This document shows positions 2,413 through 35,253 of a DNA stretch of 64,000 nucleotides, one piece after another. A program made the position numbers and the translations under genes. The DNA lies in assembly GCA_944385935.1 (NCBI GenBank), contig CALWZC010000004.1:75426-139425 (forward strand), written 5' to 3'. The notes under the pieces are model-generated. The model was not told the origin of the DNA and did no database searches. It was given only the letters and a program-made list of their open reading frames with translations. Origin of the DNA: an uncultured Anaerofilum sp. (lineage in GTDB: Bacteria > Bacillota > Clostridia > Oscillospirales > Ruminococcaceae). Position 1 is the first letter of the stretch, and every line of letters begins with the position of its first letter.

Positions 2413-3951
2413 ATGACCAGTGAGCACATTATCATGAGTATCACAATTTTGGTTTACTTGGCAGGAATGTTATGGGTGGGGGTACTTTGCTCCAAACAGA
2501 ACAAAGATACCACAGATTTTTATTTAGGAGGAAGAAAGCTAGGGCCTTTGGTAACTGCTATGAGTGCAGAGGCCTCAGATATGAGTTCTTGGCTGCTAAT
2601 GGGATTGCCGGGATTGGCCTACCTAACAGGGGTGGCAGATGCTGGATGGACTGCCATTGGTCTTGCCATTGGAACCTATATCAACTGGTTCCTGGTGGCA
2701 AAACGGTTGCGGGTGTATACGCATATTGCAGGAAATGCCATCACCTTGCCGGATTTTTTCCACAACCGCTATCGGGATAAAAGCCGGTTGTTGATGTTGT
2801 TTTCCAGCTTAATGATAGTGTTGTTTTTTATTCCATACACAGCTTCAGGGTTTGCTGCTTGTGGCAAGTTGTTTTCTTCTCTATTTGGTGTGGACTACAC
2901 AACAGCTATGGTGGTTAGTGCCATAGTAATTGTGGGATACACAGCAACAGGTGGTTTTTTGGCAGCCTCCACCACCGATTTTATTCAGTCCTTAGTGATG
3001 TCGGTAGCCTTAGTTTTGGTGTTGCTGTTTGGAGTACACACAGCAGGGGGATGGTCTGTTGTAATGGAACGTGCAGCACAACTTCCCGGTTATTTGGGAA
3101 TGTTCCAAACCCATCAGCCAGAAACAGGCACCGCTGTGGCATATCCCGCTTTGAGTATGTTTTCTACCATTGCATGGGGACTAGGATATTTTGGAATGCC
3201 TCACATTTTATTGCGGTTTATGGCCATTGAGGACAAAGAAAAACTAACATTGTCCCGCCGCATTGCGACCATCTGGGTGGTAATTTCCTTGGCAGTGGGT
3301 GTGACCATTGGCATTGTGGGCATGGCTATGACAAAAACAGGTGTGTTGCCTGTGTTACAAGGAGCCTCTAGCGAAACAATTTTGGTGGTAATTGCGGATT
3401 TAATGAGTAAAAATGGATGGTTACTGGCGATTTTTGCAGGACTAATTTTAGCTGGAATCCTTGCCTCTACCATGTCCACAGCAGATTCTCAGCTATTGGC
3501 AGCCTCTAGTTCTGTTTCGCAAAACCTTTTGCAAGGAGTATTTCAGGTTCCCATCAACAAAAAAGCAGAAATGCTTTGTGCAAGAGGAACTTTAATTGCT
3601 ATTGCATTGTTGGGAATGTGGATTGCAAAAGACCCCAATAGCTCTATTTTTGGTATCGTTTCTTTTGCGTGGGCTGGTTTTGGTGCTTGTTTTGGCCCTG
3701 TCGTTATTATGGCTCTATTTTGGAAACGTTCCAACCGATGGGGGGCTTTGGCAGGAATGCTGGTGGGAGGAACTATGGTATTTGTGTGGAAATACCTTGT
3801 AATACCTTTGGGAGGTTTTTGGAATATTTATGAGCTTCTGCCGGCCTTTGTAGCTGCTTGCGTGGCTATCGTAGTAGTAAGCCTGTTGACAGCTCCACCG
3901 GAGAAAGAAATCTGCGTGGAATTTGACAAAGTTTGCAAAGAATGCCGCTGA
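2413..3951 (+). CDS. putP: Sodium/proline symporter (SSS family)
   Basis: 512 aa, multi-TM. N-terminal DFYLGGRKLGPLVTAMSAEASDMSSWLLMGLPGLAY and overall similarity to PutP-type solute:sodium symporters. Confidence 0.85.
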   Translation: MTSEHIIMSITILVYLAGMLWVGVLCSKQNKDTTDFYLGGRKLGPLVTAMSAEASDMSSWLLMGLPGLAYLTGVADAGWTAIGLAIGTYINWFLVAKRLRVYTHIAGNAITLPDFFHNRYRDKSRLLMLFSSLMIVLFFIPYTASGFAACGKLFSSLFGVDYTTAMVVSAIVIVGYTATGGFLAASTTDFIQSLVMSVALVLVLLFGVHTAGGWSVVMERAAQLPGYLGMFQTHQPETGTAVAYPALSMFSTIAWGLGYFGMPHILLRFMAIEDKEKLTLSRRIATIWVVISLAVGVTIGIVGMAMTKTGVLPVLQGASSETILVVIADLMSKNGWLLAIFAGLILAGILASTMSTADSQLLAASSSVSQNLLQGVFQVPINKKAEMLCARGTLIAIALLGMWIAKDPNSSIFGIVSFAWAGFGACFGPVVIMALFWKRSNRWGALAGMLVGGTMVFVWKYLVIPLGGFWNIYELLPAFVAACVAIVVVSLLTAPPEKEICVEFDKVCKECR

Positions 3952-3961
3952 AAAGTGCCAA

Positions 3962-4009
3962 AAAACTCTGGATTTTGAGCTAAATTGACATCAAAGTCCA
4001 GAGTTTTTT
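3962..4009 (+). terminator. Rho-independent terminator after putP
   Basis: CTCTGGA (3966-3972) pairs with TCCAGAG (3997-4003). Inner pairing TTTGA/TCAAA, followed by a T6 run. Confidence 0.6.
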
Positions 4010-4150
4010 GTTGAATTTTTCATGAATAAATTATTAAATTTTACAAAAAATGGTACAAAATATTCCAAAAACACCAAAAATATACATGCAAAATGATATT
4101 TTTCTCACAAATAAAGGGGCAATTTGCGGGTTTGCGTGGAATTTCGTGTA

Positions 4151-4180
4151 TTGAAGGCACAGTGGAATCTATCGTATAAT
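4151..4180 (+). promoter_or_regulatory. Sigma-A-type promoter for the small ORF / Spo0A-like / kinase-like module
   Basis: TTGAAG (4151-4156), 18-nt spacer, TATAAT (4175-4180). It would give a 5' UTR of about 120 nt before the ATG at 4309. Confidence 0.45.
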
Positions 4181-4308
4181 GATGATGTTCCGAAATGCAA
4201 AGGAATAGTAAAAACTACACTACACCATGCAAGGTTGTATTTGTGGAAAAAGATGGATTTGCCTGCATGATGTAGAGATACTGTGTAAGAGTGGGCGGAG
4301 GATTTTTT

Positions 4309-4584
4309 ATGGAAACAAATTGCACTTTGATGTTGGAGAAAAGCTTTTCTCAGTTGGGCAAACTGCAAGACGAAATGCAGTTGCAGTACGCCATGAGTGT
4401 GCAACCCAATGGTGTAGAGTTTTGCGTTAGAAAAATACAAAACCACAACCAACAGTGGGAAAATAGCATGGTGGATGGATTGTCTTCAGAACAAGGAGAA
4501 CTGATTATAAACTTTATGCACCAAAATGCAGTTCCCTTTGAAAACTGGAGAGATATTCTGGAAGATTTGTTGTGCATTGTATAA
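4309..4584 (+). CDS. Hypothetical 91-aa protein (no family recognised)
   Basis: ORF 4291-4584. I chose the ATG at 4309 because GGCGGAGG lies 7 nt upstream. Product METNCTLMLEKSFSQLGKLQDEMQLQ... is soluble and acidic at the C-terminus. Coding status is supported only by ORF length, RBS and position. Confidence 0.5.
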   Translation: METNCTLMLEKSFSQLGKLQDEMQLQYAMSVQPNGVEFCVRKIQNHNQQWENSMVDGLSSEQGELIINFMHQNAVPFENWRDILEDLLCIV

Positions 4585-4725
4585 GGCAGCGGACCGGACT
4601 TTGAAAAAGGGCAACAGTAATATGTTTTGTCAGCAAGGGCTGCCCGTTTGGGTGGCTCTTTTTGCGTAGTAGCTCTTATGGGGCTGCTGGTGTAAAATGC
4701 CCATAGTAAAGGAGAGTAGAGTTTC

Positions 4726-5505
4726 ATGGCACAGGGCATTCGGGTACTTTTGGTGGAAGATAATTTGAATTTGGCAACTTTACAAGCACAAATGCTGAAA
4801 CTTCAACCCGAAAATTATCAGGTGCAGATAGCCTATACAGGGCAACAGGCAAAAGCTGCCTTGCAAGACTCTCTGCCAGATATTATTTTACTGGATTTAA
4901 CATTGCCTGCGCCAGATGGTCTTTCAATTTTGCGTTGGATGCAAACTCAGAAAAAGCCCATGCCACCAGTGATTGTCACTACCAGTTGCACCGAGGAAAG
5001 TGTTCAATGGGAGGCGTTGCGGCTGGGAGCAAAATATTTTATGATTAAGCCTTATCATTTGGATGATTTGTTAGGAAATATCCGAATGTTGCTACGAAAA
5101 CCTGCCAATGGATTTTTTGAATCTGGTATTCATCCAGAGAAAGTAGAATATCTACACCGTGTCAAAATGCTATTAAACCAGATGACCAGCCAAGTGGAAA
5201 GTGAAGGTTATCGCTATGTGTTGATGGCTATGGATAATTATTTTGACCATGGCAGACAGGGAATTTCCATCAAGGCATTAAGTGAAAAGGCAGGGCAACC
5301 TATAAACAACACCGGTGGAAATAATCTTATTGAGGCGGCAATTTATCGTTTGGTCTATCAAATTTGGAGAAAAAACTCTCCTGCATACCAACAGCTTTGC
5401 AGTTTTTGTGGATTGCCCAACGGAAGCCGAATGCCTGTCCGAAGATTTTTGTCTGCACTGGCACAGGTGGCACAAAGAGAACACACTTTGCCAAAGGAGA
5501 GGTAA
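4726..5505 (+). CDS. Response regulator with divergent Spo0A-like C-terminal DNA-binding domain
   Basis: REC domain: IRVLLVEDN, DIILLDLTLPAPDG, KYFMIKP. The C-terminal half aligns with the Spo0A effector domain: SEGYRYVLMAMDNY, NLIEAAIYRLVYQIW, PVRRFLSALAQVAQRE. RBS AAAGGAG upstream. Confidence 0.75.
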   Translation: MAQGIRVLLVEDNLNLATLQAQMLKLQPENYQVQIAYTGQQAKAALQDSLPDIILLDLTLPAPDGLSILRWMQTQKKPMPPVIVTTSCTEESVQWEALRLGAKYFMIKPYHLDDLLGNIRMLLRKPANGFFESGIHPEKVEYLHRVKMLLNQMTSQVESEGYRYVLMAMDNYFDHGRQGISIKALSEKAGQPINNTGGNNLIEAAIYRLVYQIWRKNSPAYQQLCSFCGLPNGSRMPVRRFLSALAQVAQREHTLPKER

Positions 5506-5506
5506 A

Positions 5507-6301
5507 ATGAAGGCTGAGCAAAACAAAGAATTGTACCATCAAATGAAAATGGTGACTGCTGTTGCCTATGACCTGCGAGACCCTGCAACGGTAATTTTAA
5601 TGGCCAAAGATGCTCTGGAAAAGTTGGTCATTGCCCAGCTGCCAGAGAAGGATCAAAAAAAGGCACAGGGGCCTTTGCGATATATCGAAAAAAGTGTAAA
5701 CCGATTGGAAAGAATCAGCATGAATCTGTTGGATATTTCCCGCAGTTCCACAGGAGAACTAAAACCCCACTGGGAGTCGGTTTGTATTTCAGCAGCATGT
5801 AAAGAACTATGTGAAGAAGCCAGAGCTATGCGCCAAGGGAAAAATATTGTTTGCAGTGTTCCAAAACATCCTGTTGTTATACAAACAGATTGCTATTTTT
5901 TTGACCGCATTTTACTAAATCTCCTTAGCAATGCTATGACAGCTTGTCCAGAGGGCAAAATTTGGGTGGAATTGAAGGAATACTCCAATGAAGTGGTTTT
6001 AGTGGTAAAGGACAGCGGGCCGGGCTTGGATGCCCACCGCTTGCAAAGCCCTTTTGCACCAGTCTACCGCACCGAGGATTCTTCCATGCGTTTGGGGCTG
6101 TATATTTCAGATTTGTTGGCAAAGCAAATGTACGCAACCCTTAGCGCAGAAAATATGCCTAAAGGTGGAGCAAGGTTTGTGTTACGTATTCCTGTGGAAG
6201 AGCAAGGTGGACAACAAGCCTTTTGTGCTCCTGTTCGACAGGAACAACAAACCCGAAAGCGATATGTTGAAGCAGAGTTTTCTCTATTTGACCCAATGTA
6301 A
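5507..6301 (+). CDS. Sensor-less histidine-kinase homologue (DHp+CA only) with Tyr at the phospho-His position
   Basis: ORF 5315-6301. Internal ATG at 5507 follows AAGGAGAGG and lies 1 nt after the regulator stop. N box LLNLLSNAM, G1 VKDSGPGLD, G2 RLGLYIS. H-box reads AVAYDLRDPATV, with TAT at 5567-5569. No TM or sensor domain. Confidence 0.75.
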   Translation: MKAEQNKELYHQMKMVTAVAYDLRDPATVILMAKDALEKLVIAQLPEKDQKKAQGPLRYIEKSVNRLERISMNLLDISRSSTGELKPHWESVCISAACKELCEEARAMRQGKNIVCSVPKHPVVIQTDCYFFDRILLNLLSNAMTACPEGKIWVELKEYSNEVVLVVKDSGPGLDAHRLQSPFAPVYRTEDSSMRLGLYISDLLAKQMYATLSAENMPKGGARFVLRIPVEEQGGQQAFCAPVRQEQQTRKRYVEAEFSLFDPM

Positions 6302-6330
6302 GGGTAAAGTCAGCAAAATATATCTTTTTC

Positions 6331-6370
6331 AAAAAGCCTTTGCCAGTAGTTTTGGTACAAGGGCTTTTTG
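6331..6370 (+). terminator. Rho-independent terminator after the kinase-like gene
   Basis: AAAAAGCCTTTG (6331-6342) pairs with CAAGGGCTTTTT (6358-6369) with one G-U pair. T-run follows. Confidence 0.55.
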
Positions 6371-24641: not shown

Positions 24642-27299
24642 ATGGCAAAAAAGAACGTTGTAGAGGAAGCAAAAAAATCTGCTTATCAAACAGTAGAACA
24701 ACTGTGTCAACAACTAGAAATCACACCAAATGGTTTAAAAGAATCGCAAATAGAAACAATGCGACAAGGATATGGAGCAAATGTTTTTTACCAGAAAAAA
24801 AGAATGCGAGTTGTAAACGCTCTGGCAAAAGCATTTATCACTCCTTTTCATGGTATTCTGTTTTTATTGGCTGTAATATCTGTGACAACAGATGTGTTTG
24901 TAGGCCAGAATTTTGCGAGAAACACCAGTACGGCGTTTATTATTTTTGCAATGATTATCATTAGTGGTACAATCCGCTTGGTGCAAGAGTTACGGGCAAA
25001 GTATGCCGCAGACCAACTAGACAAGCTATTACATGGGAATGTTTTAGTAAAGCGAGATAACATCTGGAAAGAAATTCCCGCAGAAAAACTGGTTGTAGGG
25101 GATTTGGTTTCCTTTGCCGCAGGGGATAGAATCCCCGCAGATATACGCTTGACCCAGACAACAGACCTATTTATTTCTCAAGCTGCCATTACAGGGGAAA
25201 GTGCCATATTAGAAAAAAATAGTGATGTGGTGCCTCCTTTAGACAAAGGAGCTTTAACGGAAAAAAGCAATCTTGCCTTTACAGCCACAGTGGTGATAAG
25301 TGGAAAAGGGCAAGGCATTGTAGTAGCTGTGGGAGAAAATACCCTATATGGTAGTGCTGCAAAAACACAAGGAGCAAGAAAAAATTCCTTTCAAAAAGGA
25401 GCAAACTCCATTGCTTGGGTTATGCTGCGATTTATGGCTGTTTTAATACCTATTGTATTTGTTGTAATTGGTATTACAGGAGGAAAATGGGCAGAATCTC
25501 TTGCCTTTGCCCTTTCGGTGTCGGTGGTGCTAATTCCCGAAATGCTCCCTATGGTCATTACTGCCTGCCTCGACAAAGGTAGCCTTTCTATGAGCAAAAA
25601 GCAAACCATTGTAAAAAATATCAATGCCATGCAGAGCTTTGGCAGTATGGATGTACTTTGCATGGATAAGACGGGAACCTTGACCAATGAAAGCATTTTG
25701 CTGGAGTACTATATGGATGTGTTGGGCAACGAAAAGCCCAAGGTGCTGGATTTTGCCTATCTAAACAGTAGTTATCATTCTGGTGTGCGCAATCCCATTG
25801 ATAACGCCATTCTTGCTTGTCATACAATGCCCAATAAACAACAGCATTTTTGCAACCTAACAAAGCAGTATCACAAAATGGATGAAATCCCTTTTGATTA
25901 TACCCGAAAAATAGCAAGTGTTCTTGTACAAGATAATACAGGTAGCTGTGAAATGATTGTAAAAGGGGATATTGAGGAGGTAGTTCGACGCTGTACGTCC
26001 ATTGAGTATCAGGGGCAAGTATTGCCAATGGAAAACCAAAGCATGGAAAATGTATGGTCTGTGGTGGAAGAAATGCTGCAAGATGGAATGAAAGTAATTG
26101 CAGTAGCCAGCAAGCCTATCTGTGGTCAAACCATTTGCCAAAAGGATGAACAAGAATTGACCTTGATGGGGTACATTGCATTTTTTGATGCACCAAAAGC
26201 CACAGCCAAAGAATCTATAAAAGCATTGCAAAAGTTGCAGGTTGCCCCCAAAATACTTACAGGAGATAAAGCACAGGTTGCAATGTCCATCTGTCGGCGT
26301 GTGGGAATTTCTCCACAGGGACTGCTAACAGGAGCACAACTGGAAGAATTAACAGAACAACAGCTCGTTGACGCCGTGCAGAGAGTGAATGTATTTGCCG
26401 AGCTTACCCCCAGCCAAAAGGTGAGCTTGGTTGCCGCTTTGCAAAAAAACAATCACACGGTGGGATTTTTGGGGGATGGAATCAATGATATTCCTGCTAT
26501 GAATCAAGCTGATGTGGGAATTTCGGTGGATACCGCAGTGGATGCCGCAAAAGAGGCGGCAGATGTGGTGTTGCTGCAAAAGGATTTGAATGTTTTGGAA
26601 CAGGGAATTTTGGAGGGCCGCAGGATTTTTACCAACATGCTAAAGTACATAAAAATTACTGCCAGTTCCAATTTTGGAAACATTTTGTCCATTGTTTGTG
26701 CCAGTGCCTTTTTGCCTTTTTTGCCCATGACATCCATTCAGATTCTCTTACTCAACCTGTTGTATGACACTCTATGTATTGTTTTACCTTGGGATGCAGT
26801 AGATGATGAGGCTATTGCTTGCCCAAAGGAATGGAATGGAAAAACACTGGGACGTTTTATGAGATGGTTTGGCCCAATTAGCTCTTTGTTTGATATTGGA
26901 ACATTTGTGTTTTTATACTATATTATTTGCCCTATGTTGTGTGGGGGACAGCTATACCACACCATTTCAGACAGAGCATTGCAAATGCAATACATTGCTG
27001 TTTTTCAAACAGGGTGGTTTTTGGAATCCATGTGGACACAGATTTTGATTTTACACTTTTTGCGAACACCTAAAATTCCTTTTATCCAAAGTAGACCTTC
27101 TATTCCTGTTGTCTGTATCACCTTTGTTGGGCTTCTTGTCTTGACAGCACTTCCCTTTGTGGCAACAGGGGCATTGTTTGGGTTTACAAAACTTCCTTTT
27201 TGGTATTTTGGATTTTTGGCAGTGACAGCATTGTGTTATATGATATTAAGTACATTATGTAAATCCCGCTATCAAAAAAAATATCAGGAGCTTATCTAA
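24642..27299 (+). CDS. mgtA: Magnesium-translocating P-type ATPase
   Basis: 885 aa. TGES, phosphorylation site CMDKTGTLT, GDGINDIPAM, and an MgtA-type C-terminus (FQTGWFLESMWTQILILHFLRTPKIPFIQSR). Confidence 0.9.
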   Translation: MAKKNVVEEAKKSAYQTVEQLCQQLEITPNGLKESQIETMRQGYGANVFYQKKRMRVVNALAKAFITPFHGILFLLAVISVTTDVFVGQNFARNTSTAFIIFAMIIISGTIRLVQELRAKYAADQLDKLLHGNVLVKRDNIWKEIPAEKLVVGDLVSFAAGDRIPADIRLTQTTDLFISQAAITGESAILEKNSDVVPPLDKGALTEKSNLAFTATVVISGKGQGIVVAVGENTLYGSAAKTQGARKNSFQKGANSIAWVMLRFMAVLIPIVFVVIGITGGKWAESLAFALSVSVVLIPEMLPMVITACLDKGSLSMSKKQTIVKNINAMQSFGSMDVLCMDKTGTLTNESILLEYYMDVLGNEKPKVLDFAYLNSSYHSGVRNPIDNAILACHTMPNKQQHFCNLTKQYHKMDEIPFDYTRKIASVLVQDNTGSCEMIVKGDIEEVVRRCTSIEYQGQVLPMENQSMENVWSVVEEMLQDGMKVIAVASKPICGQTICQKDEQELTLMGYIAFFDAPKATAKESIKALQKLQVAPKILTGDKAQVAMSICRRVGISPQGLLTGAQLEELTEQQLVDAVQRVNVFAELTPSQKVSLVAALQKNNHTVGFLGDGINDIPAMNQADVGISVDTAVDAAKEAADVVLLQKDLNVLEQGILEGRRIFTNMLKYIKITASSNFGNILSIVCASAFLPFLPMTSIQILLLNLLYDTLCIVLPWDAVDDEAIACPKEWNGKTLGRFMRWFGPISSLFDIGTFVFLYYIICPMLCGGQLYHTISDRALQMQYIAVFQTGWFLESMWTQILILHFLRTPKIPFIQSRPSIPVVCITFVGLLVLTALPFVATGALFGFTKLPFWYFGFLAVTALCYMILSTLCKSRYQKKYQELI

Positions 27300-27315
27300 A
27301 AGGGGGTGTTGTGGA

Positions 27316-28014
27316 TTGAAACAGAAAATCAGCTTTGTTCCTTTGGATGCAGACTTGCAACTTTGGCTATTGGAAAAATTGTTAAAGGAGCCACCCCAAA
27401 GCCCCTACACAGCAGAGTTTTTGCAAGGGGTTCGCAATCTAATTTGTGGACAAACGAGCTCGCTACTTCTAGGAAGTCCTGAACAAAAGGGAGTAGTGGA
27501 ACAGGGATTGTCCGAAAGCATTGTAGTGGGAGAGTTGGAAATATCCCCTAAAAATAGAAAGGTCATCCTACAAGGGAAAGAGATAAGCCTCACCCCAAAA
27601 GAATTTGATATTTTGTATTTTTTGGTGGAAAATAGGGGAGGAGTGTTATTCAACGACTTGCCTGCCCATTTTAGTGGAGCAGAGTTGGCAGCGGTACAAG
27701 CAAAATATATCGGGCTATTTCAAGCCGGCTGGTTTGTAGAATCCATGTGGAGCCAAACATTGGTGATTCACATGATTCGTACCCCAAAATTGCCTTTCTT
27801 GCAAAGCCGAGCTTCTGCACCTGTCACACTGCTTACCATGGCGGGAATTGTGGTGCTTACTATCATTCCTTTCACTGGTTTTGGTGCTATGCTAGGATTT
27901 ACTTCTTTGCCCATTGTTTATTTTGCTTATCTCATTCCTTGCATTGTGCTGTATATGGCTTTGGCAACCAGCTTGAAAAAAGCCTACGTTCGCCACTATG
28001 GAGAATTGCTATAA
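27316..28014 (+). pseudogene. Chimeric remnant ORF joining a truncated OmpR-type winged-helix fragment to a diverged second copy of the MgtA C-terminus (last 2 TM)
   Basis: Residues about 69-110 (VVGELEISPKNRKVILQGKEISLTPKEFDILYFLVENRGGV) are the first two-thirds of a Trans_reg_C domain. Residues about 128-232 (AKYIGLFQAGWFVESMWSQTLVIHMIRTPKLPFLQSRAS...YVRHYGELL) are collinear with the last ~105 aa of the upstream MgtA. TTG start 9 nt after GGGGG. Confidence 0.6.
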
Positions 28015-29521: not shown

Positions 29522-30145
29522 ATGAAAGGGCTATTGCTAAAAGATTTTTACATGACAATCAAATATGGTAAAACTTTGTTTCTGGTGGTCTTGGTTTTTT
29601 GGGCAATTTCTTGTTTTGATGATGGGGGAAGTTTTTTCCTGGTATACCCTATGATTTTAGCCGGAGTGCTTCCAATGTCCCTGATTTCTTTGGATGAACG
29701 GGAAAAATGGGTACAATACAGCGGAACATTGCCGTATACCAGAGCACAGTTAGTATCTTCAAAATATATCATAGGGCTTTTGTTGGGCGTTGGAGCATTT
29801 ATTCTTTCTATGGCGACTACTGCTGGCCGTATGTGGATGAATGGATATTTTTCTTTGTTAGAGTTTGGAACAATAGCCTCTCTTCTTCTTGTGTTGGGGT
29901 TGTTGCCGCCCACCATTTTACTGCCCTTTGTTTTCAAATTTGGAGCAGAAAAAGGCAGAATCATGTTTTATGTGGTGATTGGCTTGGCAACTGCTATTGG
30001 TACTTTATTGGCAGGGTTTGGATTTCAAATGCAGATGCAGACCAATGAATTTGCAATACTATTTGTAATGTGCACTGTGGCAGTATTGTTATATCTTGGC
30101 TCTTGGTGCCTTTCCGTTGCTTTTTATAAAAAACGAGAATTATAA
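29522..30145 (+). CDS. ABC-2-type transporter permease
   Basis: 207 aa, about 6 TM. N-terminal MKGLLLKDFY is typical of ABC-2 permeases in GntR/ABC modules. ATG lies 10 nt after AAGGAG. Confidence 0.7.
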   Translation: MKGLLLKDFYMTIKYGKTLFLVVLVFWAISCFDDGGSFFLVYPMILAGVLPMSLISLDEREKWVQYSGTLPYTRAQLVSSKYIIGLLLGVGAFILSMATTAGRMWMNGYFSLLEFGTIASLLLVLGLLPPTILLPFVFKFGAEKGRIMFYVVIGLATAIGTLLAGFGFQMQMQTNEFAILFVMCTVAVLLYLGSWCLSVAFYKKREL

Positions 30146-30150
30146 TGTAC

Positions 30151-30196
30151 AAAAAGGTTTTGTTTTTTCAAAAAGAGAACAGAACCTTTTTCTTTT
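30151..30196 (+). terminator. Rho-independent terminator after the ABC module
   Basis: AAAAAGGTTTTGTT / AACAGAACCTTTTT stem with one mismatch, followed by a T-rich tract. Confidence 0.6.
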
Positions 30197-30235
30197 GGTG
30201 TATTTTTCTGACAAAATGCCCTCTTTTTGCTAAAG

Positions 30236-30269
30236 TTCTGTTCACAAGTGAACAGAAATATGGTAGAAT
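30236..30269 (+). promoter_or_regulatory. Perfect 10+10 palindrome overlapping a predicted promoter of the Zn-ribbon/SPFH pair
   Basis: TTCTGTTCAC-AA-GTGAACAGAA (30236-30257). The -35-like TTCACA (30241-30246), 17-nt spacer and extended -10 TGgTAGAAT (30261-30269) follow. Confidence 0.5.
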
Positions 30270-30309
30270 TACAAAAACATCTATCCATGACAAAGGAGGG
30301 AAAGCATCA

Positions 30310-31506
30310 ATGGACTTGACACAAGAAAAAGTGGAAAATTTTGTGTGCGAGAATTGCGGCGGAACATTAAAATGGAATATAGCAAAAAAGCAATTGGAGT
30401 GTGGGTCTTGTCACACTCCCTATACTCTGCAACAGGAATCTGTTATACAAGAGCATCCCTTTGAGGAATATCATCAGCGTGAGCAGCGAACAGAAGCATT
30501 TCCTGATGAAACAGTGGTAAAGTGTAACTCTTGTGGTGCAGAAGTAGTGTTTGATAGAGATGACACGGCAAAGGTCTGCCCTATGTGTGGGGCAACTCAG
30601 ATTTTGCCACAAAAGCAGGTGCAAGGTGTTCCACCAGATGGAGTTTTGCCCTTTGAAATAGATAAACAGGCAGCCCAGCAAAAATTTAAAAAATGGGTAA
30701 GAAGTCGTTGGTTTGCCCCCAATAAGCTAAAAACCGTTTACCAAGAGGGAAAACTGAATGGGGTGTATATTCCTTTCTGGACCTTTGACACACAAGCAAA
30801 TGGCGAGTACCATGGTAGAGGTGGCAAGGAGCATGTTCGAGAGGACAAAGACGGCAACAGACGTGTGGAAGTTCGTTGGATACCTGTAAGCGGGCATGTG
30901 GGAAAATTTTTTGATGATATCCAAATTTCTGCCTCCATGGGACAGGTGAATGAGGTTGTAGATAAGGTTTTACCCTATTCTACACAAACAAAGCTACATG
31001 GATATTCTCCTATGTATCTTTCGGGATTTTCGGCAGAACGATATGCCATTCCAGCAACACAGGCCGCCGAAACCATGAAAGAGAAAGTTCGGCGAGAGTT
31101 GAAACGGATGGCAGAGGAGGATATTCGGTCAAGAGGGTTTGACCGAGCAGATGTACAACACTTGAAACTGGATTTAGAAGATACTACCTATAAGCAAGTG
31201 TTGTTACCTGCATGGTTTTCTTCCTATGCCTACGGAAAAAAGCAGTATATGTACATTATCAATGGTGAGACCGGCGAAGTAGGAGGACAGAGGCCTTATA
31301 GCATCCCCAAAATTGCAGCGGCTGTTGTGGCTGCACTTGCGTTGGTGGGGCTAATTGTTTGGGGCTCTTCCGAAAAAACAGAGGCAGCCGTTTTTGCCAC
31401 ACCAACCACAGAGGTGGTTTATCAGCAGGAACAACCTGCAAATACAATTTTGATGAAAGAAGGAAATGCAAATGGCTTGGTTTGGACAAGGAAAGGACAC
31501 AATTGA
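30310..31506 (+). CDS. Double zinc-ribbon protein with C-terminal TM anchor (YdjG-like)
   Basis: ATG at 30310 after AAAGGAGGG. Two CxxC...CxxC ribbons (CENCGG...CGSC; CNSCGA...CPMCG). C-terminal TM IPKIAAAVVAALALVGLIVWG. Confidence 0.7.
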   Translation: MDLTQEKVENFVCENCGGTLKWNIAKKQLECGSCHTPYTLQQESVIQEHPFEEYHQREQRTEAFPDETVVKCNSCGAEVVFDRDDTAKVCPMCGATQILPQKQVQGVPPDGVLPFEIDKQAAQQKFKKWVRSRWFAPNKLKTVYQEGKLNGVYIPFWTFDTQANGEYHGRGGKEHVREDKDGNRRVEVRWIPVSGHVGKFFDDIQISASMGQVNEVVDKVLPYSTQTKLHGYSPMYLSGFSAERYAIPATQAAETMKEKVRRELKRMAEEDIRSRGFDRADVQHLKLDLEDTTYKQVLLPAWFSSYAYGKKQYMYIINGETGEVGGQRPYSIPKIAAAVVAALALVGLIVWGSSEKTEAAVFATPTTEVVYQQEQPANTILMKEGNANGLVWTRKGHN

Positions 31507-34290: not shown

Positions 34291-35253
34291 GTGTTTTTTG
34301 ATGAAAAAATACAGTTGGTATGGGTGGATGGCTCGGTGCAGCTTTTGGAAAGTTTTGTACAGAAGTGTTGCATGGGGGATGAACGTGTACATCCTACCAC
34401 AGCCAGCGATAAAATGAGCGCAGGCATGGGCTTTGCCCCCCCAGAAATAGAAAATAATTGGGCGCAGCGCATTGAGGAAATGGAACAGATGGCCCAAGGG
34501 CTGGAACTTCCAGTGGTAGAGCCTGCTTTTGAGGATGCTCGTTCTCCCAAATTGGATGGATATTTGCAGCGAGTCAAAACCGCTTTGGATGAGAAACGGA
34601 ATATTCTGAAAGATTTGGAGGCACAACAGGTTTTGTGTCAGCAGGGCATAGAGCAATTTTCCCATTTTGAAGAACTGGATGTGGATTTGAGCAAAGCTCT
34701 TGAATGTGAATACATTTCCATCCGTTTTGGAAAACTGCCCAAAGCTGGGTTTGAAACTCTGTTGAGGGAACACGGCGATGACCCTTATGTGTTCTTTATT
34801 CGGTGCAGCGAAGACAAGGATTTTTACTGGGGAATGTATTTTGCTCCCCGTGAAAAACGAGCTTTGGTAGATGGTATCTTTGCAGGCTTGTACTTTGAAC
34901 GAGTACGGTTGCCCGGTGCAGGGGGAACCCCAAAAGAAATTGTAGAAAATCTTCAACACAATGTAGAGATTTTGCGCAGCCAAATTTTGCAAGCACAAGA
35001 CCAACTACAACAGGTATGGGGAGCAGAAAAATGGCGTTGCGCTGGTATTTATGCCTCTTTTTGCAGTTTGGCCCGTGTAGCAGAGTTGTGCAAGTGTGCT
35101 GCTGTGCGGGGAGAGCATTTCTTCTATGCAGTATGGGTGGAACAAACTGCTATGGAAGCCTTTGTATCTCGCTGCGAATCTGTGGGCAAACTGCATATGG
35201 CAATGGATATGACCCTTCCCAGAAAGAAATGGAAACAGCTCCATCAGCAATAA
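34291..35253 (+). CDS. Stand-alone paralogue of the cytoplasmic N-terminal domain of V-ATPase subunit I (no membrane domain)
   Basis: 320 aa, GTG start after GAAGGAGAGG. Collinear with residues 1 to about 320 of the next gene: EKIQLVWVDGSVQLLESFVQKCCMGDE vs EKMKLVRVDGLLSQLDDFILRCCINGD; DDPYVFFIRCSEDKDFYWGMYF vs DDPYVFFVPCSQENGGYWGLYF; GIFAGLYFERV vs GIFSMLYFERI. Confidence 0.7.
   Translation: MFFDEKIQLVWVDGSVQLLESFVQKCCMGDERVHPTTASDKMSAGMGFAPPEIENNWAQRIEEMEQMAQGLELPVVEPAFEDARSPKLDGYLQRVKTALDEKRNILKDLEAQQVLCQQGIEQFSHFEELDVDLSKALECEYISIRFGKLPKAGFETLLREHGDDPYVFFIRCSEDKDFYWGMYFAPREKRALVDGIFAGLYFERVRLPGAGGTPKEIVENLQHNVEILRSQILQAQDQLQQVWGAEKWRCAGIYASFCSLARVAELCKCAAVRGEHFFYAVWVEQTAMEAFVSRCESVGKLHMAMDMTLPRKKWKQLHQQ

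Follow-up and report, generated by a model that had tools for sequence, protein, structure and literature searches.

A three-gene cassette of Anaerofilum encoding a kinase-like protein with tyrosine at the phospho-histidine site and a divergent Spo0A-like response regulator

The contig CALWZC010000004.1 of an uncultured Anaerofilum sp. (assembly GCA_944385935.1) harbors, within the stretch of 64,000 nucleotides analyzed here (positions 75,426 to 139,425, hereafter the window), a cassette of three genes. The first open reading frame (ORF) codes for a small protein of 91 amino acids (4309–4584), the second for a response regulator of 259 amino acids (4726–5505) and the third for a histidine kinase homologue of 264 amino acids (5507–6301), composed of the DHp domain (dimerization and histidine phosphotransfer) and the CA domain (catalysis and ATP binding) and carrying tyrosine at the site of the phosphorylatable histidine. 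All three genes, together with the promoter and terminator-like elements described below, lie on the + strand. The ORF calls agreed with the gene boundaries given by a first-pass annotation made from the sequence alone. They also agreed with the gap of 1 nt that it had described between the regulator stop codon (TAA, 5503–5505) and the ATG of the kinase-like gene at 5507. The ribosome-binding site of the latter, AAGGAGAGG, was located within the 3′ end of the regulator gene, and this tight junction with an internal ribosome-binding site was found to be conserved across all loci.

The ORF of an upstream SSF transporter terminates at 3951; next to it is a strong hairpin and T-run terminator (3959–4010) consisting of a 20-nt inverted repeat, 95% complementary, and TTTTTT; the cassette is therefore isolated as its own transcription unit. 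The promoter assigned to it, TTGAAG-18-TATAAT at 4151–4180, was the top-scoring promoter-like site of the region in a promoter scan (10/12) and was conserved in the orthologous loci. It belongs to a larger promoter and operator-like tandem motif, TTTGCGTGGAATTTCGTGTATTGAAG-18-TATAAT (4131–4180), with the −35 element at 4151–4156 and the −10 element at 4175–4180. The terminator proposed downstream of the kinase-like gene was recovered as a hairpin with a T-run (6330–6370; RNA fold −19.2 kcal/mol, z −2.1), which was not among the calls of a strict terminator scan. With a promoter and a terminator to itself, the cassette forms a self-contained operon on the chromosome. A further terminator-like hairpin, GGGCTGCCC/GGGTGGCTC followed by a T-run, with an 11-bp stem in the minimum-free-energy fold, is present at 4637–4663, in the spacer that separates the small ORF from the regulator gene. 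It may be an attenuator that could let less read-through reach the two genes downstream; other loci do not keep it, the small ORF and the regulator gene overlapping there or the spacers being different. No Rfam match was obtained within the window. The GC content of the cassette (42.5%) was not distinct from that of the window (43.8%), and horizontal transfer judged by composition was rejected, a recent import not being suggested.

Pfam analysis of the kinase-like protein identified HATPase_c (1.6e-17) and, below threshold, HisKA (1.9e-4; 21.9 bits, cut-off 26.9). It revealed no further domain, neither a PAS nor a sensor domain. The DHp domain (residues ∼14–86) starts at about residue 14 of the 264-residue protein, so that only ∼13 residues precede it; the protein is therefore without a sensor domain, in agreement with the sensor-less DHp and CA architecture first proposed for it. 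Compared with canonical HisKA kinases, both the phosphorylatable histidine of the H-box and an input domain are absent. In a phmmer search against PDB sequences, the H-box region AVAYDLRDPATV was paired with aLSHDLRTPLTV in KdpD and, in a bacteriophytochrome kinase, with vSHDLRNPMTV. In the PDB alignments Tyr21 (codon TAT, 5567–5569) occupied the phospho-His column of KdpD, the bacteriophytochrome kinase and CpxA, and a multiple alignment with outgroup kinases likewise placed Tyr21 in their His column, which bears out the assignment made in the first-pass annotation. The other histidines (His11, His88, His121 and His177) were considered as acceptors and rejected, as none is conserved in the orthologues and the alignments place Tyr21 in the column; this includes His11, the alternative named at the outset.

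The nucleotide-binding motifs were described initially as N, G1 and G2 boxes. The N box (5894–5947; Asn138 and Asn142) and the G1 box (6005–6031; Asp169, Gly171 and Gly173) were found to be intact, and these five residues are invariant across the kinase-like family. Only a remnant of the G2 box, LGL (6092–6100), is present, the GxG part being missing, and the ATP lid is ∼6 residues shorter than in CpxA or KdpD. The stretch AVILAAxD in the α1 helix of the DHp domain is conserved family-wide. Beyond the CA domain, the protein ends in a tail with the motif QxRxKRxxAEF (residues 248–258; 6248–6280), of which Gln248, Arg250, Ala256, Glu257 and Phe258 are invariant. The tail is family-specific, nothing comparable being present in ordinary kinases, and is a possible partner-binding motif.

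The response regulator has a canonical, intact receiver, as proposed earlier. Response_reg was matched at 7.6e-20, and the receiver (residues 5–123; nt 4738–5094) contains the phospho-site residues Asp12, Asp57 (4894–4896), Thr86 and Lys108. These residues (with Thr or Ser at position 86) are conserved in every lineage, with or without histidine in the partner, so the receiver is predicted to be phosphorylation-competent. The motif LxLAxL in the α1 helix of the receiver is also conserved family-wide. Its closest solved relatives are Spo0A receivers (1dz3, 8.4e-25, vs. 9e-19 for the next family), and in a Foldseek search with the full-length regulator, in which receiver matches dominated, Spo0A receivers were the best. 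The C-terminal domain (residues 137–251; nt 5134–5478) was assigned as a six-helix domain of the Spo0A_C fold. When modeled alone from an 8-sequence alignment, it gave a predicted local distance difference test (pLDDT) score of 88 and a predicted template modeling (pTM) score of 0.82, and the top seven Foldseek matches of this model were all 1fc3 or 1lq1 with a probability of 0.99–1.0. A collinear alignment with B. subtilis Spo0A over residues 2–264 showed 25% identity. In the same alignment, the signature of the recognition helix, which we take to be SRVERAIRHAIEVAW in Spo0A, was largely replaced, the regulator reading NLIEAAIYRLVYQIW there.

At the sequence level, the C-terminal domain did not pass as Spo0A. 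Spo0A_C scored 13.0 bits on the full regulator (E 0.11; residues 147–246 vs. profile positions 2–101 of 104) and 15.4 bits on the isolated C-terminal domain, in both cases against a cut-off of 25, and any Spo0A_C match was obtained in only two of the nine family members. TIGR02875 scored 80 bits (cut-off 200) on the receiver only. A family profile run against PDB sequences retrieved no Spo0A C-terminal domain and only ApcE (E 1.4); the resemblance to this phycobilisome linker was dropped, as the fold searches returned Spo0A only. Thus, the Spo0A-type regulator of the first-pass annotation holds at the level of the fold and fails the curated Pfam and TIGRFAM thresholds. The C-terminal domain is modeled as being of the DNA-binding type, with the Spo0A effector fold and a different recognition helix, and the regulator is Spo0A-like in fold and descent without being a recognizable Spo0A ortholog. 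It is also not placed beside spoIVB, as already noted in that annotation: its neighbors are the SSF transporter gene and miaB in the window, or pyrH at other loci. No second spo0A was found in the 64-kb window.

The small protein was initially described as belonging to no recognized family, and it proved to be a real, conserved third gene of the cassette (dN/dS, the ratio of nonsynonymous to synonymous substitution rates, 0.13). It contains a near-invariant FSxLGxLQ, an invariant Tyr27 and the C-terminal motif FLYENAVPxENWxDILxEL; all six sequences extending over this position have Ser14. No significant match was obtained in Pfam, NCBIfam or PDB profile searches, BTB, NblA and gp7 being at chance level, and a word-based homolog search returned chance-level matches or the protein itself.

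The distribution of the cassette is narrow. A search covering 5.8 billion proteins yielded about a dozen clusters related to the kinase-like protein at >45% identity, after which the next matches were generic kinases at ≤30% identity. Among 185,579 species genomes scanned, the family was present in three records, all labeled Anaerofilum. A metagenome scan together with an exhaustive HMMER search gave two further loci, the metagenome scan adding a locus of the His-bearing clade only. An HMMER search with the C-terminal domain of the regulator against 1.84 billion representatives retrieved only three related clusters; the hits P0191–P0193 were rejected as repeat-protein artifacts. Viral relatives were looked for and none was found. 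The named records with the cassette are Anaerofilum metagenome-assembled genomes (MAGs) only.

The gene order of small protein, regulator and kinase-like protein was constant in all seven loci reaching far enough upstream; the contigs of L086, L087–L090 and L091–L092 end before the position of the small ORF and were left out of this count. Two types of flanking region were observed. In the window and L001 the cassette lies in the order SSF…miaB-ylbF-mutS-mutL, and in L002, L004, L006, L007 and L093 it is placed upstream of pyrH-frr-uppS-cdsA-dxr. A peptidyl-prolyl isomerase (PPIase) gene located 2.8 kb upstream in the window is the direct neighbor in L007. In L001, the locus of the closest relative, an extra ORF of 152 amino acids without a Pfam match (4728–5186) is present between the small ORF and the regulator gene, where the window has a spacer of 141 nt.

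Comparison of the orthologs revealed that the residue in the acceptor column varies. Tyr, encoded by TAT, is present in the window species and in P0002/L001, P0003/L005, P0004/L002 and L085. Cys (TGC) occurs in P0006/L006, a cluster of 37 member sequences including a named MAG, Gly (GGC) in P0005/L086 and Lys (AAG) in L007. A sister clade at 47–51% identity (P0007–P0010, P0012, L004 and L093) carries His (CAC). The neighbor-joining tree showed the His clade to be monophyletic (bootstrap 100), the Lys lineage to be sister to the Tyr clade of the window, P0002 and P0003 (bootstrap 91), and the Gly and Cys lineages to be nested with the Tyr-bearing P0004 (bootstrap 100). Of the two features whose conservation the first-pass annotation had proposed to check, the three-gene architecture was retained at all seven loci and Tyr in five lineages only; the family as a whole is not marked by a fixed Tyr. 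The simplest reading of these sequences would be one old loss from CAT to TAT, after which Tyr was in turn replaced in three lineages.

The exact kinase-like protein of the window is indexed in 52 blocks of a public assembly collection, and 13 of 13 full-length near-identical variants carry Tyr21. A base-call error or strain mutation was therefore rejected as the source of the Tyr. Orthologs with CAT at this codon had been named as a sign of such an artifact. Histidine was kept in the distant sister clade, as CAC, and nowhere else in the family, and the loss is therefore old and lineage-wide and not an artifact.

The persistence of TAT/Tyr in five His-less lineages across deep divergence, together with an H-box that retains its acidic residue (+1) and its Arg (+3), could suggest that Tyr21 itself is the phospho-acceptor, undergoing autophosphorylation and then passing on the phosphate, as first proposed for DivL of Caulobacter, with which the first-pass annotation had compared the protein. 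Autophosphorylation of DivL on Tyr is cited as having been reported in 1999 (reference 17 in PMC4211667). Such a role of Tyr21 is nevertheless very unlikely, as Cys, Gly or Lys is found at this position in orthologs on which the same purifying selection acts, and in DivL itself a phosphorylated DHp domain is not required in vivo and no kinase activity is found in vitro (PMC4211667).

The selection acting on the kinase-like gene was estimated from dN/dS. The L002/L006 pair (Tyr vs. Cys, 88% identity, unsaturated dS of 0.56) gave 0.134, equally distributed over the DHp (0.134) and CA (0.136) domains, in comparison with 0.076 in the His clade and 0.016–0.019 in the neighboring pyrH. The overall range was 0.07–0.13 for the kinase-like gene and 0.07–0.21 for all three cassette genes. 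The best-conserved block is the N box, 84% identical among the deeply diverged His-less lineages vs. 32–58% elsewhere, and all His-less lineages have an intact DxGxG in the G1 box. As judged from these substitution patterns, the constraint on the His-less copies is relaxed about twofold yet strong and is concentrated on the nucleotide pocket, and the acceptor residue itself appears free to change.

It could be argued that the cassette is a non-functional relic, i.e., a two-component system in decay, its lineage being about to lose signaling of the sporulation type. The lost histidine, the eroded G2 box, the dN/dS about twofold above that of the His clade (0.134 vs. 0.076) and the reportedly incomplete sporulation gene set of Anaerofilum (PMC6069880) would be in agreement with such a decay. 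The reading frames are, however, intact in every lineage, the dN/dS is low for all three genes, the promoter and the coupling through the ribosome-binding site are conserved along with the N box, and identical copies of the allele occur in the 52 assembly blocks, which makes a relic highly improbable.

The same conservation bears on a further possibility, namely that the CA domain has been repurposed and has a Ser, Thr or Tyr as its target, either in the small protein (Ser14 or Tyr27) or in the regulator, comparable to the GHKL-type anti-sigma kinases SpoIIAB and RsbW, whose substrate is their partner. A top-conserved N box and an intact G1 box in every His-less lineage are hard to explain if ATP is irrelevant, and a small conserved partner, with Ser14 in all covering sequences, is always co-encoded. 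On the other hand, the lid is short and little is left of the G2 box, the DHp domain is retained and conserved, whereas kinases of the SpoIIAB type are without one, and the small protein has no similarity to STAS/SpoIIAA. The proposal is pure inference and is considered improbable.

The upstream region was analyzed for elements through which the regulator might act. Six loci (the window, L001, L002, L004, L006 and L007) were found to share TTTGCGTnGAATTTCGTGTATTGAAG-17-TATAAT upstream of the cassette, although synonymous sites are saturated. Conserved across the six are the −10 element, ATTG as the core of the −35 element, and (C)GTnGAAnnn/(C)GTrTATTG, the two (C)GT units being spaced at 10 bp and abutting the −35 element. 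In the window, a third, partial copy of the motif (GTGGAATCTATCGTAT, 75%) overlaps the −10 element at 4162–4177, and an exact 12-mer copy (TGCGTGGAATTT) is present 220 bp upstream at 3913–3924, inside the SSF transporter gene at its 3′ end. By our own estimate, an exact 11-mer would recur by chance in 64 kb with an expectation of ∼0.03. No canonical 0A box (TGTCGAA/TGNCGAA) was found in the cassette promoter region. Going by its conservation, the tandem motif at the promoter is likely a candidate operator for the Spo0A-like regulator, which would probably bind the motif abutting the −35 element and autoregulate the operon.

Taken together, the favored reading, held at about even confidence, is that the third gene of the cassette encodes a pseudo-histidine kinase that controls a phosphorylatable Spo0A-like regulator by binding and not by phosphotransfer. 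The kinase-like protein would no longer pass phosphate to the regulator but would still dimerize via its DHp domain, dock the co-encoded regulator and bind nucleotide. The regulator could then be controlled through sequestration, stabilization or sensing of its phosphorylated form, by analogy with DivL and phosphorylated DivK, and this control by docking would possibly be nucleotide-dependent. The phosphate on Asp57 would come from a different donor, such as an orphan kinase or acetyl phosphate. The conserved small protein would be a likely input or adaptor, because a sensor domain is missing from the kinase-like protein. In the His-bearing sister clade, this cassette is probably still an ordinary kinase–regulator pair.

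Several points weigh against this reading of control by binding. The deep branching and the root of the family tree are weak (bootstrap 36–53), which leaves the number of independent losses uncertain, and the Lys and Gly alleles rest on one contig each. Tyr, always as TAT, is kept in five of the eight His-less lineages despite saturated synonymous divergence, and Tyr at the acceptor site may thus not be functionally indifferent. The alternative phosphodonor for Asp57 is hypothetical, and the role given to the small protein, which has no homolog in the family searches, is a guess. Lastly, the CA pocket, the most conserved part here whereas the CA domain of DivL is dispensable, hints at a role of ATP beyond simple docking.

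The retained docking surfaces are also compatible with a dedicated phosphatase, in which kinase activity is lost and dephosphorylation of the phosphorylated regulator is kept, so that the protein would be a pure negative regulator like the Spo0A-repressing orphan kinases of Clostridia. The docking helices are conserved and the phospho-site of the regulator is intact. In HisKA kinases, phosphatase activity is stimulated by the nucleotide-bound CA domain, and this would explain the conserved N and G1 boxes. The HisKA phosphatase motif is said, following the work of Willett and Kirby in 2012, to require Thr or Asn at the position His+4. In the kinase-like family this residue is Asp, Glu or Ser (YDLRD, HDLRE and YDLRS), not Thr or Asn. 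The orphan kinase-type proteins PtpA, PtpB and PtpC of C. difficile act as Spo0A phosphatases, the histidine being required in PtpB (bioRxiv 10.1101/2021.11.18.469199), and DivL, the closest precedent, is without phosphatase activity (PMC4211667). A phosphatase is accordingly regarded as unlikely, and control of the regulator by binding remains the preferred interpretation.

The comparison with DivL supports an analogy and not a relationship. DivL carries Tyr at the His site, has no kinase or phosphatase activity and binds phosphorylated DivK via the normal docking surface; in the structure paper, Tyr at this site is described as occurring “uniquely” in DivL, with one Ala exception in Magnetospirillum, and the CA domain can be dispensed with (PMC4211667). 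The HisKA-type DHp and CA fold, Tyr in the phospho-His column, the other residues of the H-box and the N and G1 boxes are common to the kinase-like protein and DivL, as are exceptions among the orthologs that are neither His nor Tyr (Ala for DivL; Cys, Gly and Lys here). By analogy, both presumably act on a response regulator by the docking surface without phosphotransfer. Unlike DivL, the kinase-like protein has no multi-PAS region and is anchored neither to the membrane nor at a pole. Its partner is a Spo0A-like regulator of the DNA-binding type from the same operon, whereas that of DivL is the single-domain DivK acting on CckA, and its sister clade keeps His. In the PDB search, DivL (4q20) was the 18th match (E 7.7e-7), behind 17 ordinary kinases headed by KdpD (3.5e-13). 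Membership in a DivL-like family, as the first-pass annotation had implied, was therefore abandoned: given the absence of special sequence affinity and of PAS domains, the kinase-like protein is a convergent analog of DivL and not a member of its family. A bolder interpretation, offered tentatively and held to be rather doubtful, is that the cassette is a second, independent instance of DivL-style “reverse” two-component signaling, in Firmicutes, with the transmitter repurposed to read or regulate its own response regulator in a nucleotide-dependent manner and being wired to a highly divergent Spo0A-family branch not recognized before and to a new small partner. On this interpretation, the module appears to have been caught in transition, because sister lineages carry His in the same operon, and, if the conserved ATP pocket is in use, it may phosphorylate a substrate other than His.

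The cassette also differs from the known Spo0A systems. At ∼25% identity, the regulator lies below the thresholds of Pfam Spo0A_C (PF08769) and TIGR02875, has a dedicated, co-transcribed kinase-like partner and is without a 0A box in its own promoter. Extra copies of spo0A have been described in Clostridia, with ten genomes containing two and Anaerostipes hadrus containing three (bioRxiv 10.1101/2022.02.25.481979), and the non-sporulating Faecalibacterium duncaniae has three proteins annotated as “Spo0A homolog” (PMC13020158). The spo0A paralogs of Clostridiales/Ruminococcaceae are recognized by the standard models, whereas the regulator family described here is not. In the literature, no report was found of a spo0A paralog coupled to a His-less kinase, nor one combining Anaerofilum and spo0A. 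The C. difficile Ptp proteins resemble the present case in being kinase-fold proteins that modulate a Spo0A-type regulator negatively and not by activating phosphotransfer, but they keep His, have sensor regions and are unlinked to spo0A. Spo0B and ChpT are likewise histidine kinase descendants that have lost half of the kinase function and kept receiver docking. The loss is opposite in the two cases, as Spo0B and ChpT have kept the His with a dead ATP pocket, whereas the present family has lost the His and kept the ATP pocket.

The cassette would provide an independent Gram-positive case beside DivL, described as the unique carrier of Tyr. The natural orthologs with His, Tyr, Cys, Gly and Lys in otherwise identical operons form a comparative series for the passage from kinase to pseudokinase, and this allelic series allows the role of the retained ATP pocket to be asked. 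The Spo0A effector fold reaches beyond the detection of Pfam and TIGRFAM, which matters where the presence or absence of spo0A serves to infer sporulation capacity in gut Clostridia. The narrow distribution, with all named records being Anaerofilum MAGs, limits the wider impact unless the mechanism is general.

The remaining window is ordinary chromosome with miaB, ylbF, mutS, mutL, miaA, divIVA, transketolase, guaA and V-ATPase genes. An ORF of 453 amino acids (30145–31506) following an ABC-2 transporter pair and an ORF of 320 amino acids (34291–35253) inside the V-type ATPase cluster showed no Pfam family at E ≤ 1e-5. At 24642–28014, a P-type ATPase gene (885 amino acids) is directly followed by an ORF of 232 amino acids that matches the Cation_ATPase_C domain only and may be a duplicated fragment or part of a split gene.

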